NCBI GenBank assembly: GCA_001662655.1
Contig: KV460238.1
Strand: one strand, 5' to 3'
Length of the DNA stretch: 46,253 bases
Source: Pseudogymnoascus verrucosus
Taxonomy: Eukaryota
Shown here: positions 37,546 to 44,268 of the stretch, piece by piece
How the letters are laid out: every line of letters starts with the position of its first letter
Numbering within the stretch: position 1 is the stretch's first letter
Notes under the pieces: generated by a model
The model's input: only the letters and a program-made list of their open reading frames with translations
Told to the model about the DNA's origin: nothing
The model's database searches: none
Made by a program: the position numbers and the translations under genes

Positions 37546-39284
37546 CTATTTCGATTTTTCTGGCCACACCGTGCGCTTCCTCGCACGAACGTAAAAGTTC
37601 AACGGACGAATCAGCTGGAACTCCGGATCATACTCGATCGTCTCCGCCGACGCACGCGAGAACTCATATCGATACAACAGTTCCGGTAGCAGGACCTTAA
37701 CCTCCTGCAGCGCAAAGTTGAAACCAATGCATCCACGGGGCCCAGTCGCGAACGGGAGATACGCGCACCGATGCCTGTCCTTCGACTTCTCCGGCTCCCA
37801 CCGCGATGTGTCGAAGCGCAGCGGGCTGTCCCAGAAATCGGGGTTGGTCTGGATTGCGTAGAGCGCGGGGATGAGGATCTTGTCGGCTGGGAGGCGGTAG
37901 CCGCCAGGGACGATAACTTCTTGTTTTGTGGTCCGGCCGGGTTGGTAGGAGGGGTTGTGGATTCGTTGCGTCTCTTTGACGAATTTGTCGAGGTAGGCGA
38001 GGGATTGGATGAGCTCCGTGTCCCAGTTGGTCTCACTGTTGACGTCGTTATCAACAAGTTCTTGGAGGAGACGGTCCTGTTCGCCGGGGTATGTGACCAT
38101 TGAGTATATCAGCCAGGATAGCAGCGACGAGGTAGTCGTGAATCCAGCCCCAGTGACGACGACGAGGTTCGAAAAGGCAAGCTGCTCGGGAAGTTTGGCG
38201 CCAGTCTCGTCGACAGCTCGAGCGAGATAGTCGGCTGCGCAGCTTGCCTGGAGAGCAGCGTCGTGGAGTGGAAGGTCCGGGGCTCCCTCATCTCGAAGGG
38301 CATTCATAGCCTTGTGGATGATACCATACATTTCCTGTTGTCCGCTCTTGAGGCGCGCTGGGTCTCCAAAGGGGAGTTTCCCGTACCAAGCACCGCGGGA
38401 GGCGACCTTCTTGTTGAGAGCCAGGATTTCTGCGATGAGTTTCACGGCCCTGTGTAGCGGGGCGTCGCGGCTCTCAAAGTGGCCAAAGTCCAGACCGAGA
38501 CTGAACTTTCCCACCGTTTGAGAGCCTAGTTTTAGCATGTATTGGTAGACGTTCCAGGACTCGTCCGCCTCATCGGCAGCATCGAATACCTTGAAGGATT
38601 CCCGGACGCATTGCTGCATCAATGGCGTATAGTGCCGGACGGCCTTTGGACTCAGACATGGAGGCACAAATTTATGGCTCAATCGGAAATTTTCAGTCTC
38701 TGTGTCGCCTAGGAAGAGCGCGGAGTTATCCTTCAATGGAAACAGCGGGTGATCAGAGTTGATGCCCTTGGTGAAATATTGAGATTCGCTGAAAGCATAG
38801 CCCGCCACAGCTGGGTCATTGGTCAGGTAGTTGACCTTTCCATTGTTGACCGTCTTGATGACGGAACCGTATTTGCGAAATAGGCGCTCGTGGTTTCCGA
38901 GATGGTCGGGGTAGATCTCGTAGAAGTTGCCGACGATGGGCAGTGGAGGCGGCCCATCTGGCTCGCGAATTGGCATCCCATCTACGCTGATGCCGATAGA
39001 GGAGTTGGCCTCCTCCACCTCGGCCACGGTCTCGATAGCTTGGTCTGCTGATTGGAATGAAATTCCTGCATATATCTCGTCAGCTATTATTCTCTAACGC
39101 GAAGGTGTCGACGGCAAGTATATATTAGTGTATAGGGTTTCTTACCTGATGGTTGGATGATGTGAAACTCATCGCCCAGCACCTCTTGCAAGGATTTTAG
39201 GGTTTGGTTGCTGTCGACCTCAATAGAGCGGGCAGTGCTTGGATCATCGCCCACTAGGTAGAACTGCTTCGTAACAGTCGACAT
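37546..39284 (-). CDS. Cytochrome P450 lacking an N-terminal membrane anchor (probably CYP540-like), 2 exons (39284-39146, 39065-37546)
   Basis: GPPPLPIVGN, I-helix GAGFTTTS, KETQR and heme motif FATGPRGCIG. The hydrophilic N-terminal extension MSTVTKQFYLVGDDP has no TM segment. Family assignment is from recall. Confidence 0.92.
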
Positions 39285-39650
39285 CTTGGATTTAGTATTT
39301 GTAAAAGACACTGACGACAATGTTAAAAATTAAGCAGGACAGTTTAAATAGACAACCCGGCATGGGGCCTCGTTTAAATATGTGTGTTGACTAGAAAAAT
39401 CTTGCACGCTTGTAACAAATCAAAAATCCAGACATAGAAATGTTATAACTTATATATGCATTTCTTCGTTGTGACGATGTGGCGGCGTATACGTATTTTC
39501 ATAATTGTTATGCCGTCTAAGCCGTCTCTCGGGAGGAAGCGGCGCTGGACAGTGGACCACAATAATGGCTCAGGAACACCCAACAATTCTCGGTGAAAGA
39601 AAACCAGGGACAGACGGGGCCATATTACAACAGGTCTCCACCTTTAATGA

Positions 39651-39656
39651 CCGAGG
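39651..39656. promoter_or_regulatory. CCGAGG (= CCTCGG) candidate FarA/Ctf1-type fatty-acid-response motif in the divergent promoter
   Basis: Exact hexamer near the middle of the P450/b5-b5R intergenic region. A hexamer can occur by chance. Confidence 0.35.
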
Positions 39657-39942
39657 TGCGTGGAAGATATCAGGAGGCTCCGTTTTATTTTCCTGGGTTC
39701 AATTATAGCTATTCACGATTTATTCGAAGTAAATGATGTCTCCCCAACGTGAAATGGGTAGCATCTCCGGCGCACCTACTCGAGGAGTTAGGAAAAGATT
39801 TTGCCACGTCCTAAATAAATACCGCATACCAATGCCACATTTTTTTCTCTTAAAAGACTTACGCATTTTCAGACCTAGAATATATACCACTTCACCTCCA
39901 CTCCCTTCCGTTCCTCCCACCCCATTCACCTCTCAAACGCCT

Positions 39943-41872: not shown

Positions 41873-41878
41873 CCTCGG
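41873..41878. promoter_or_regulatory. CCTCGG candidate FarA/Ctf1-type motif upstream of the hydroxyacyl-CoA dehydrogenase gene
   Basis: Exact hexamer about 590 bp upstream of the ATG at 42466. A chance match is possible. Confidence 0.3.
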
Positions 41879-42465
41879 CGTCATGGTGGGGCAAAAAACC
41901 ACTACCGGACTCCGGCACTCACATACCGCCTCTTGGCAGAAAATCTTAAAATCAGAAAGCCCAGCTTGACTGATAAGAGCTAAAGAAAACCGCTCTAAGC
42001 CTCCCCGACGTGCGGGATTCTCGTCATGTCATTTGCTCGGAACGCGGGTGCTTCCGCCGAAGAATGTTTCTAGCTCGTCTGAAGCTATGTCCTCAACAAT
42101 TGTTCTAGGGCGAGATCCACTGGGGGGGTTCGGGATGCGGCCTGCCGACTGTGCCGCTTGGGAATAAGGAGGCGAGGGGATTCTTGCTTATAGGAGAGGT
42201 GCCCCCGATGGCTTTCTTCGCGTTATCACTCTGAAGCTGTGCTGGAAATCTCGGCATGCTCGGTGGCGGTCATGATCAGCTAATTAGTAGGGGTTTATAT
42301 ATATAGCCCCTATGAACCTGCTCTCTAAGGTTTGAATTAAATCCTACATTAATCTACTATTTCTCCTATCACTCGGGTTCATAATAATTCTGGTTTACTC
42401 ATATCTTACTTCTATCTTTCACCACCCCTCTCTTAACCTCAATTCCTCCCCCAACCACTCGAAAC

Positions 42466-44268
42466 ATGGCCTCATGGACTCCCCCAGCCACGGCCGGCCG
42501 CCCCATCGCCATCCTAGGCGCAGGCGTCCTCGGCCGCCGAATGGCCCTCATGTTCACAGCTGGCGGCCACGATGTTCACATCCGCGACCCCTCCTCCGAC
42601 CAACTCTCCGCGGCCCTAACCTACATCACCGAGACCATCCCCTCCATCGCCCAACCCGGCGTCACCCCCGGCACCGCGCACGCCTTCTCCTCCCTCTCCG
42701 AAGCTGTCAAAGACGCCTGGCTAGTAATCGAAGCCATCCCCGAGGTTCTCTCTCTCAAAATCAGCACTTTCGCCGAGCTGGCCGCGCTGGCCCCACGGGA
42801 CTGCATTCTCGCCACCAACTCGTCGTCTTATAAGTCTAGCGCTATGCTCGATGAGGTCCCCGAAGCGGACAAGCCACGCGTGTTGAACATGCATTTCTTC
42901 ATGCCCCCCGCCAAACGCGTCGTGGAACTCATGACCAGCGGCGTCACCCACGCCTCCATCTTCCCATTCCTCTATGGGGAGCTGACGAGGGTCAAAATGA
43001 GTCCTGTGGTCGTCAAACGCGAATCAACCGGGTTCTTGTTCAACAGAATCTGGGCAGCTATCAAACGCGAGTGCCTCACTGTTATAGCTGAGGGTGTTGG
43101 GAGCCCAGAGGACATCGACGGGGTGTGGACGCAGATGTTCGGTAGCGCCGAGGGGCCGTGCAAACTAATGGATCAAGTCGGTCTGGACACCGTGGCGCAT
43201 ATCGAGGAACATTATATCGAGGAGCGGGGCTTTGATCGCAGCGCTCGCGACTTCGTGGTGCGCGAGTACGTCGAGAAGGGGAAGCTGGGCAAGAAATCCG
43301 CGGCGGGGGGGCTGTACCCCCCTCAGGCAGAAGAGGAAAAGGGGCGGGGACTGTATATCCTCGATCTCGGCCTCACCAACCTCTCCGCCCCCATGTCATC
43401 CGGGCGCGTCCTCGTCGGCTCCATCGACGGCAAGACTCCCCTGACAACCATCGCCTCAGGGGAGTCACTACCAGACGGTATCGCAACCCTAGGAAACCGC
43501 ATCTACTGGACCTCCATGGGGCCTCCCTCTACCAACACCGGTTCGATCCGCTCTTCCCTCCCCGACGGTACGGGTGTTACGACGATCCTGGCGCCGGGGG
43601 AGGTACATACACCGAAACAAATCACAGCGGATCGCACAAACGGATACCTCTACGTCTCCGATCGCGAAGGCATGCGCGTACTCCGTTTCCGCCCCGATGG
43701 CACCGATCTCACCACCTTGGTGCAGACTGGGGATTTCAACAACCCCACCCACAAATCCGATCAGACGAGGTGGTGTGTGGGTATCGCTGTGGACCCTGTT
43801 CATCGGATGGTTTACTGGTCTCAGAAGGGACCTAGCAAGGGGGCCCAAGGCCGGATCATGCGCGCTTCCCTTGACATCCCTAGGGGCGAAACAGCAGAGA
43901 CTCGGACGGATATCGAGGTCCTCTTCTCTGGACTCCCCGAGCCAACAGATCTCGAAATAGACACCACCTCACAAACCCTCTACTGGTGCGACCGCGGCGA
44001 GTTACCCCTAGGTAACACCGTTAACTGCGCCAGCGTGACGCGCAACGCTGTGTCAGGGGAGGGAAAATCGGAGCTAGAGCGGAAACTGGGGTATAAAATC
44101 CTCCTCGCAGGACTGCATGAGGCGATTGGGTTACAGGTTGATGTCGCGAATGGGTTCATCTACGCGTCGGATTTAGGGGGAGGGGTGTATAGGTTTAACA
44201 TCGACGGGTCTGGAAAACAAAGGATATACGAGGGGGAGTGCGCGTTTGCTGGTATAGCTCTGGCATAG
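42466..44268 (+). CDS. 3-hydroxyacyl-CoA dehydrogenase fused to a C-terminal YWTD/LDL-receptor class B-like beta-propeller
   Basis: ILGAGVLG Rossmann motif, LVIEAIPE..LK, LATNSSS, NMHFFMP, GFLFNRIW and MDQVGLD. Then repeats IYWTSMG, LYVSDREG, VYWSQKG, LYWCDRG and IYASDLG. Confidence 0.92.
   Translation: MASWTPPATAGRPIAILGAGVLGRRMALMFTAGGHDVHIRDPSSDQLSAALTYITETIPSIAQPGVTPGTAHAFSSLSEAVKDAWLVIEAIPEVLSLKISTFAELAALAPRDCILATNSSSYKSSAMLDEVPEADKPRVLNMHFFMPPAKRVVELMTSGVTHASIFPFLYGELTRVKMSPVVVKRESTGFLFNRIWAAIKRECLTVIAEGVGSPEDIDGVWTQMFGSAEGPCKLMDQVGLDTVAHIEEHYIEERGFDRSARDFVVREYVEKGKLGKKSAAGGLYPPQAEEEKGRGLYILDLGLTNLSAPMSSGRVLVGSIDGKTPLTTIASGESLPDGIATLGNRIYWTSMGPPSTNTGSIRSSLPDGTGVTTILAPGEVHTPKQITADRTNGYLYVSDREGMRVLRFRPDGTDLTTLVQTGDFNNPTHKSDQTRWCVGIAVDPVHRMVYWSQKGPSKGAQGRIMRASLDIPRGETAETRTDIEVLFSGLPEPTDLEIDTTSQTLYWCDRGELPLGNTVNCASVTRNAVSGEGKSELERKLGYKILLAGLHEAIGLQVDVANGFIYASDLGGGVYRFNIDGSGKQRIYEGECAFAGIALA

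Follow-up and report, generated by a model that had tools for sequence, protein, structure and literature searches.

The closest described system is that of Aspergillus nidulans, in which Kojima et al. (2025, Commun Biol 8:1361; PMC12462446) characterized a cluster comprising the cytochrome P450 CYP540A2, CBBR and betaHDH (AN8919, AN8920 and AN8921). According to that report, CYP540A2 is reduced with reduced nicotinamide adenine dinucleotide (NADH) by the adjoining CBBR, a natural fusion of cytochrome b5 and b5 reductase. The two proteins convert C7-C12 fatty acids to (R)-beta-hydroxy acids, with the carboxylate positioned by Ser431 and Gln542 of the P450. For the Ser431 mutants, kcat/Km is reported to be lower by about tenfold. 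betaHDH, in which a 3-hydroxyacyl-coenzyme A (CoA) dehydrogenase part (3HCDH) is joined to a YWTD propeller, oxidizes free (R)-beta-hydroxy acids of C8-C14 to beta-oxo acids with NAD+ (for free (R)-beta-hydroxydecanoate, Km 60 uM and kcat 12 per s). In A. nidulans, the cluster genes are induced by medium-chain fatty acids, and deletion of the P450 or the reductase gene increases cellular decanoic acid. The same source reports 714 clusters in 662 strains from a cblaster search, with a head-to-head P450-reductase gene pair in most of them, and describes the pathway as a partial bypass of beta-oxidation. Here, we analyzed a 46,253-bp stretch of the Pseudogymnoascus verrucosus contig KV460238.1 (the window) and a three-gene unit at positions 37546-44268 within it. 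This unit is a member of the system published in 2025; it is real, and it is not new.

Other known enzymes resemble parts of this unit. Mammalian Ncb5or is likewise a natural fusion of cytochrome b5 and an NADH-dependent b5 reductase, but it contains a CHORD-SGT1-like hinge, accepts NADPH besides NADH and has no known P450 partner (PMC12462446). The CYP152 peroxygenases (P450 BSbeta and SPalpha), too, hold a fatty acid by its carboxylate and hydroxylate the alpha or beta carbon. They use H2O2, an Arg for the carboxylate and no redox partner, whereas CYP540 is a monooxygenase with Ser and Gln in this role and with an NADH-driven partner (PMC12462446). The self-sufficient P450 BM3 (CYP102) is a soluble fatty-acid hydroxylase as well, and its heme domains were among the solved relatives of the window P450 (E around 1e-17 to 1e-20). 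BM3 differs, however, in carrying its reductase, a diflavin enzyme that uses NADPH, in one polypeptide with the P450, and in hydroxylating at subterminal positions. Among solved structures, CYP4B1 and CYP3A4 were the best matches to the window P450 (E 5e-29 to 4e-26).

Gene models were obtained by reading stop-to-stop frames and splicing them at GT...AG sites, and domains were assigned with Pfam. The features of the locus are as follows.

37546..39065, minus strand: P450 exon 2; residues 47-552 and stop, with the P450 domain, Thr357, Ser419, Gln530 and the heme-ligand Cys492
38965..39284, minus strand: coding region of the predicted N-terminal domain, about 80 residues in place of a membrane anchor; interrupted by the intron; AlphaFold2 model with structure matches
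39066..39145, minus strand: P450 intron, GT...AG, 80 bp; its removal yields exactly the deposited protein P0371
39146..39284, minus strand: P450 exon 1; start codon 39284-39282, residues 1-46 and the first base of codon 47
39285..39942, no strand: divergent intergenic region and common promoter, 658 bp, from the P450 start codon to that of the reductase
39651..39656, minus strand: CCTCGG hexamer in the divergent region, not above chance
39943..40027, plus strand: exon 1 of the CBBR-like gene; deposited start at 39949
40081..40241, plus strand: exon 2 of the CBBR-like gene; most of the cytochrome b5 domain, with HPGG at residue 39 and GHS at residue 62
40298..41464, plus strand: exon 3 of the CBBR-like gene; linker, FAD-binding and NADH-binding domains, stop (FAD, flavin adenine dinucleotide)
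about 40298-40702, plus strand: two-helix linker in exon 3, moderately hydrophobic
40745-41038, plus strand: FAD-binding domain (Pfam FAD_binding_6, E 4.6e-31)
41066-41389, plus strand: NADH-binding domain (Pfam NAD_binding_1, E 2e-32)
41873..41878, plus strand: CCTCGG hexamer upstream of the dehydrogenase gene, not above chance
42466..44268, plus strand: betaHDH-like gene, one exon, 600 amino acids (aa), assigned with Pfam and identical to the deposited protein P0389
42505-43017, plus strand: 3HCDH NAD-binding domain (Pfam 3HCDH_N, E 4.6e-30)
43030-43311, plus strand: 3HCDH C-terminal domain (Pfam 3HCDH, E 1.1e-18)
about 43363-44265, plus strand: YWTD-type beta-propeller with five YWTD-like motifs

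The three genes at 37546-44268 encode a P450 (552 aa), a b5/b5-reductase fusion (470 aa) and a dehydrogenase-propeller fusion (600 aa). An initial annotation of the window had delimited this unit, with a P450 transcribed divergently from the b5 fusion across about 660 bp and a 3-hydroxyacyl-CoA dehydrogenase gene next in line, and the models bore it out. All three genes lie at these coordinates, a distance of 658 bp separates the start codons (664 bp if the deposited reductase start, two codons further in, is used), and 3HCDH_N and 3HCDH were both recognized in the gene at 42466-44268. This gene starts 1001 bp past the reductase stop on the plus strand. The P450 and dehydrogenase models agree letter for letter with the deposited proteins P0371 (VE01_07421) and P0389. 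The reductase model differs from P0380 (VE01_07422) only in having two additional N-terminal residues. All three deposited proteins are on one 356,253-bp contig.

Supplementary Table 3 of PMC12462446 lists P. verrucosus UAMH 10579 with a cluster at 347545-354268 that comprises one P450, one CBBR, no transcription factor and one betaHDH, and it has nine more Pseudogymnoascus rows. The tabulated span is 6,724 bp, compared with 6,723 bp for our locus. Subtraction of 310,000 from the table coordinates gives 37545-44268, and the same offset applied to the contig (356,253 - 310,000) gives 46,253, the window size. The window locus itself appears to be already in print in this table.

The unit resembles the published A. 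nidulans cluster in its three domain architectures, in the head-to-head order of the P450 and reductase genes and in the extra N-terminal domain of the P450 (about 79 residues in the paper). Also in common are the Thr/Ser/Gln/Cys residues of the P450, the two-helix linker of the reductase and the YWTD propeller on the dehydrogenase (PMC12462446).

The 552-aa product matched Pfam p450 (E 5.6e-58) and carries the heme motif FATGPRGCIG from residue 485 (pattern FxxGxxxCxG). Kyte-Doolittle scoring of 19-residue windows along the whole protein detected no hydrophobic N terminus. Because the peak value is only 1.38 and is located in the I-helix, away from the N terminus, the P450 is anchorless, in agreement with the initial annotation. 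The window P450 has the I-helix Thr357 as well as Ser419, Gln530 and Cys492, and none of these four residues varies among the 28 homologues aligned. As a stand-in for CYP540A2, we used the Aspergillus multicolor protein P0119, in which the corresponding Thr363, Ser432 and Gln543 are at most one residue off the CYP540A2 numbering. The Ser-to-Gln spacing is 111 residues in both the window P450 and CYP540A2. The Thr-to-Ser spacing is 62 residues in the window P450 versus 68 in the CYP540A2 paper (PMC12462446), a difference accounted for by an insert of 6 residues that all but one of the seven aligned Aspergillus sequences contain, P0119 among them. Since the spacings agree, Thr357, Ser419 and Gln530 would correspond to Thr363, Ser431 and Gln542 of CYP540A2, and we infer that Ser419 and Gln530 are the equivalents of the carboxylate-binding pair. 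By the usual CYP naming rule, proteins with at least 40% identity belong to the same family. The window P450 shows 56.8% global identity, measured to the proxy P0119 rather than to CYP540A2 itself, which places it in the CYP540 family; the initial annotation had left the family to a BLAST comparison. In the published search, the corresponding P. verrucosus locus was scored as a match to the cblaster P450 query.

In a maximum-likelihood tree of 34 P450 sequences, the window P450 grouped with Saccharata and Sarea within a 6-row clade (support 100/97), which includes Cladophialophora and a second protein from Pseudogymnoascus as well. The CYP540A2-like proteins of Aspergillus and Penicillium and a further Pseudogymnoascus protein fell into a distinct clade of 24 rows (95/95). 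Three Pseudogymnoascus lineages were thus present in the tree, that of the window (P0371/P0001), P0006/P0005 and P0014, and the window P450 is 62-63% identical to the other two proteins. According to the tree, therefore, the window lineage is not the closest of the three to the characterized CYP540A2.

The fusion protein matched Pfam Cyt-b5 (E 1.7e-17) in addition to the two reductase domains, and contains HPGG, RSYTPIS, GTGITP and CGPPGM, which we take to be cofactor or catalytic motifs. Each of the 23 aligned fusions has its hydrophobicity peak, scored in 19-residue windows, starting between residues 110 and 197, a region that we take to be the linker. The scores of these windows were 1.32-2.19, with 15 of the 23 at 1.6 or above and 1.67 for the P. 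verrucosus protein. The linker helix was considered as a membrane anchor and rejected: the homologue from A. nidulans var. acristatus scores higher, at 1.88, and recombinant A. nidulans CBBR is soluble (PMC12462446). The linker may instead be a hairpin contacting lipid or the P450. Many Penicillium and Aspergillus fusions (P0146-P0240) aligned only to the reductase part of the query (80% of its length), at 54-58% identity, which is above the 45-50% of the full-length matches. Fungal b5/b5-reductase fusions may fall into two classes that differ in the linker and the b5 part.

The dehydrogenase contains the motifs GAGVLG, NSSS, HFFMPP, VEL and GFLFNR, presumably cofactor or catalytic motifs. Its C-terminal half gave weak matches to the YWTD propellers of LRP4, LRP6 and LRP2 (E 7e-9 to 6e-8), and beyond the YWTD core, all 24 sequences keep the propeller motifs DREG, QKG, DRG and DLGG unchanged. 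PMC12462446 does not discuss the role of the propeller. Lambda-crystallin and diketoreductase, which were in the same match list, have NAD-binding and C-terminal domains like those of the window dehydrogenase, and their names carry no CoA substrate. Both lack a beta-propeller and act on other substrates. The 3HCDH-YWTD fusion is also frequent in Fusarium, Trichoderma, Beauveria, Botrytis and others, at about 50% identity; these four genera were not found among the named top 120 P450 matches. The dehydrogenase family may extend beyond the cluster and work with other partners.

Residues 1-80 of the P450 make up a folded domain, after which comes a Pro/Gly-rich stretch (REPDGPPPLPIVG). An AlphaFold2 model of this domain alone, made from residues 1-86 of the 96%-identical protein P0001 with a 24-sequence alignment, had a predicted local distance difference test (pLDDT) value of 84.7 and the topology beta-beta-alpha-beta-beta-alpha-beta. 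The domain shape was retained in a model of the full-length P450, with a pLDDT of 85-91 per block. Foldseek comparison with the Protein Data Bank (PDB) returned Elongin B, ubiquitin, UFM1, ISG15 and ELMO Ras-binding domains, with template-modeling (TM) scores of 0.55-0.68 and E values from 3.9e-4. With VIA-align against 48,161 chains, Z scores were middling (7.0-8.3 over 64-82 residues), and nearly all 50 rows were ubiquitin-like, doublecortin (DCX) or Ras-binding domains. The CYP540 N-terminal domain is therefore predicted to have a ubiquitin-like beta-grasp fold; the prediction concerns the fold and not the function.

Pfam gave no family for the N-terminal domain of the first member. Eight families that each matched one of 24 members (E 0.017-0.21) were dismissed as noise. 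A profile search of 1.84 billion representatives yielded 176 matches at E <= 0.001, mainly short first-exon fragments. Twelve longer matches were scanned with Pfam: eight contained p450, two gave nothing, and two were long repeat or secretion-signal proteins, which were taken as spurious. Among these representatives and the 12 longer matches scanned, the domain was found in no other architecture, occurring only ahead of P450 domains or as short fragments. When the ubiquitin-like domain was submitted to complex prediction together with the whole dehydrogenase, as a probe for an assembly of the P450 with that enzyme, the score was 0.00, against a mark of 0.34.

Whether the trio is syntenic elsewhere, a question raised by the initial annotation, was answered positively by consecutive locus tags and by the cblaster table of PMC12462446. 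All three genes are consecutive in Sarea resinae (M1819_004556, 004557 and 004558) and in Pseudogymnoascus VKM F-3808 (O988_02288, 02289 and 02290). Consecutive tags were also found in Helicocarpus griseus (AJ79_00575 and 00576) and Cladophialophora bantiana (Z519_04021 and 04022), and in Penicillium verhagenii the reductase gene N7454_008578 adjoins the dehydrogenase gene N7454_008579. In Ascobolus immersus, the P450 and the reductase are on contigs of equal recorded size (364,404 bp). Pseudogymnoascus is a Leotiomycete, and Leotiomycetes, Pezizomycetes and Sarea are not named in the text of PMC12462446, although its table includes Pseudogymnoascus. The class tally in that source comprises Eurotiomycetes, Dothideomycetes, Sordariomycetes and Lecanoromycetes, compared with ten Pseudogymnoascus (Leotiomycetes) rows in the table. 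A table header there reads AN8929.4 where AN8919.4 seems intended, and the second P450 is named both CYP540B4 and CYP540B2.

We consider it very probable that the locus is a Pseudogymnoascus copy of the published CYP540-CBBR-betaHDH cluster, which by homology with A. nidulans would work in the same way. In this mechanism, electrons would pass from NADH to the FAD of the fusion protein, then to the fusion's own b5 heme and from there to the soluble P450. The P450 would grip the carboxylate of a free medium-chain fatty acid with Ser419 and Gln530 and hydroxylate the beta-carbon. The 3HCDH-YWTD protein would oxidize the resulting free (R)-beta-hydroxy acid with NAD+ to the beta-oxo acid, which a 3-ketoacid CoA transferase could then pass to ordinary beta-oxidation, as proposed in PMC12462446. 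The statement in the initial annotation that a CYP540 enzyme with such a b5 fusion acts as a fatty-acid hydroxylase in Aspergillus is confirmed by that paper, in which CYP540A2 is NADH-driven, and the suggested bypass of beta-oxidation steps corresponds to the partial bypass described there. The dehydrogenase was rightly seen as the follow-on enzyme; its supposed substrate, a hydroxyacyl-CoA, does not hold for A. nidulans betaHDH, which oxidizes free (R)-beta-hydroxy acids (PMC12462446). Regeneration of NADH, also suggested, does not follow from the published stoichiometry. By our own arithmetic the route is NADH-neutral, because the P450 step consumes one NADH and the dehydrogenase step yields one.

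Several observations weigh against a simple transfer of the A. nidulans mechanism. Judged by the tree, the window P450 is not an orthologue of CYP540A2; unlike it, it belongs to the separate, well-supported 6-row clade, and its global identity to the closest proxy, P0119, is 56.8%. Lys30 and Arg36 in the N-terminal domain of CYP540A2 are predicted to contact the b5 domain (PMC12462446); read from the 28-homologue alignment (A1) via P0119, the equivalent positions appear to be Thr and Glu in the window clade. Furthermore, the unit differs from the A. nidulans cluster in having no AN8918-like transcription factor. No Zn2Cys6 pattern was found in the six frames of the window (an intron-split motif would escape this search), and a domain scan of 21 large open reading frames (ORFs) of the window yielded no fungal transcription factor. 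The factor is optional, being present in 115 of the 167 strains with all three enzyme genes (PMC12462446). The catalytic mechanism is probably the same as that of CYP540A2.

The divergence of the P450 also raises the question of whether the same machinery does another job here. The window P450 would then be an out-paralogue of CYP540A2 that works with the same NADH/b5 fusion partner but on a different carboxylic acid, chain length or carbon position, and Pseudogymnoascus would keep several such units for separate substrates. The three separate Pseudogymnoascus P450 lineages at about 62-63% identity are in line with this, as is the divergence of the reductases, another reductase of the species (P0144) being 48% identical to that of the window. 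In our reading of alignment A1, the region of the B-C loop also differs, with HPLFPLKDNSALFLGD in the window clade versus HPLWGVKDNTAIFIGD in the consensus. However, all 28 aligned sequences retain the Ser and Gln that bind the carboxylate, changes in the pocket are conservative, and a betaHDH-type gene is still alongside, and we regard a different job as rather unlikely. Much less likely still is a dehydrogenase acting on hydroxyacyl-CoA, which would require a CoA ligase between the P450 and the dehydrogenase. The N-terminal half does belong to the 3-hydroxyacyl-CoA dehydrogenase family, and its best solved relatives are 3-hydroxybutyryl-CoA dehydrogenases (E 2.7e-27). Yet the A. nidulans homologue oxidizes free (R)-beta-hydroxydecanoate (PMC12462446), diketoreductase and lambda-crystallin, whose names indicate no CoA substrate, are among the solved relatives, and a CoA ligase gene is absent from the three-gene unit. 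We give practically no credence to chance, that is, to three unrelated redox genes lying side by side. The remaining genes of the window resemble ordinary housekeeping genes and not a metabolic cluster, which would suit chance, but the same three genes are adjacent in distant Ascomycota classes, so that synteny already contradicts this explanation, and 714 clusters in 662 strains have been reported (PMC12462446).

CCTCGG is the site of FarA/FarB (Ctf1) (PMC5068947), and the initial annotation had pointed to copies at 39651 and 41873 as a sign of fatty-acid induction. Both copies are present; the argument built on them did not stand. In the whole window we counted 28 copies, compared with 25.4 +/- 5.4 expected, and at least 28 were reached in 32 of 100 shuffles; therefore, the motif has no statistical weight here. 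With one site per upstream region and a window count at chance level, CCTCGG enrichment was rejected as a sign of a FarA/FarB regulon. A single site may be functional.

It is conceivable, but improbable in our view, that the free beta-oxo acids mainly lose CO2 and yield volatile 2-alkanones rather than re-entering beta-oxidation. If so, the CYP540-CBBR-betaHDH unit would be the disputed genetic basis of fungal methyl ketone formation from medium-chain fatty acids, which touches on blue-cheese aroma and ketonic rancidity. The literature on methyl ketones is mixed in this respect. In favor of the link, the two deuteriums at C2 are retained by Penicillium roqueforti and end up in a CD2H methyl group (Walker and Mills 2014, PMC3985342); classical beta-oxidation fails to explain this, and direct beta-hydroxylation would. 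Also in its favor, the main text of PMC12462446 does not mention ketones or decarboxylation. Against the link, almost no 18O2 incorporation was reported (PMC3985342), P. roqueforti is not in the cluster table of PMC12462446, and C6 falls outside the reported C7-C12 range.

Elsewhere in the window, a second P450 (1292-2389, plus strand), an ERG4/ERG24-type sterol reductase (3493-4560, minus strand) and a squalene epoxidase-like fragment of an FAD monooxygenase (6663-7304, minus strand) lie close together at 1292-8399 and may form a small sterol- or terpenoid-modifying group. The region 32222-33148 contains a MYND-like zinc-finger stretch (CGSNCQKSHWSTHKTDC) and, after it in the next frame, DUF4470 (E 2.5e-22); the two probably belong to a single spliced gene.

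The system is of interest as a new class of P450 redox partner and as a CoA-independent entry into beta-oxidation, for which the credit belongs to the 2025 paper. Our analysis adds the presence of the cluster in Leotiomycetes, the full trio in Sarea and P450-reductase pairs in Pezizomycetes (Ascobolus). Also new here is the predicted fold of the CYP540 N-terminal domain, a domain that the text of Kojima et al. leaves unexplained. The three diverged CYP540 lineages of Pseudogymnoascus would constitute a natural set for studying substrate specificity in a soluble P450.

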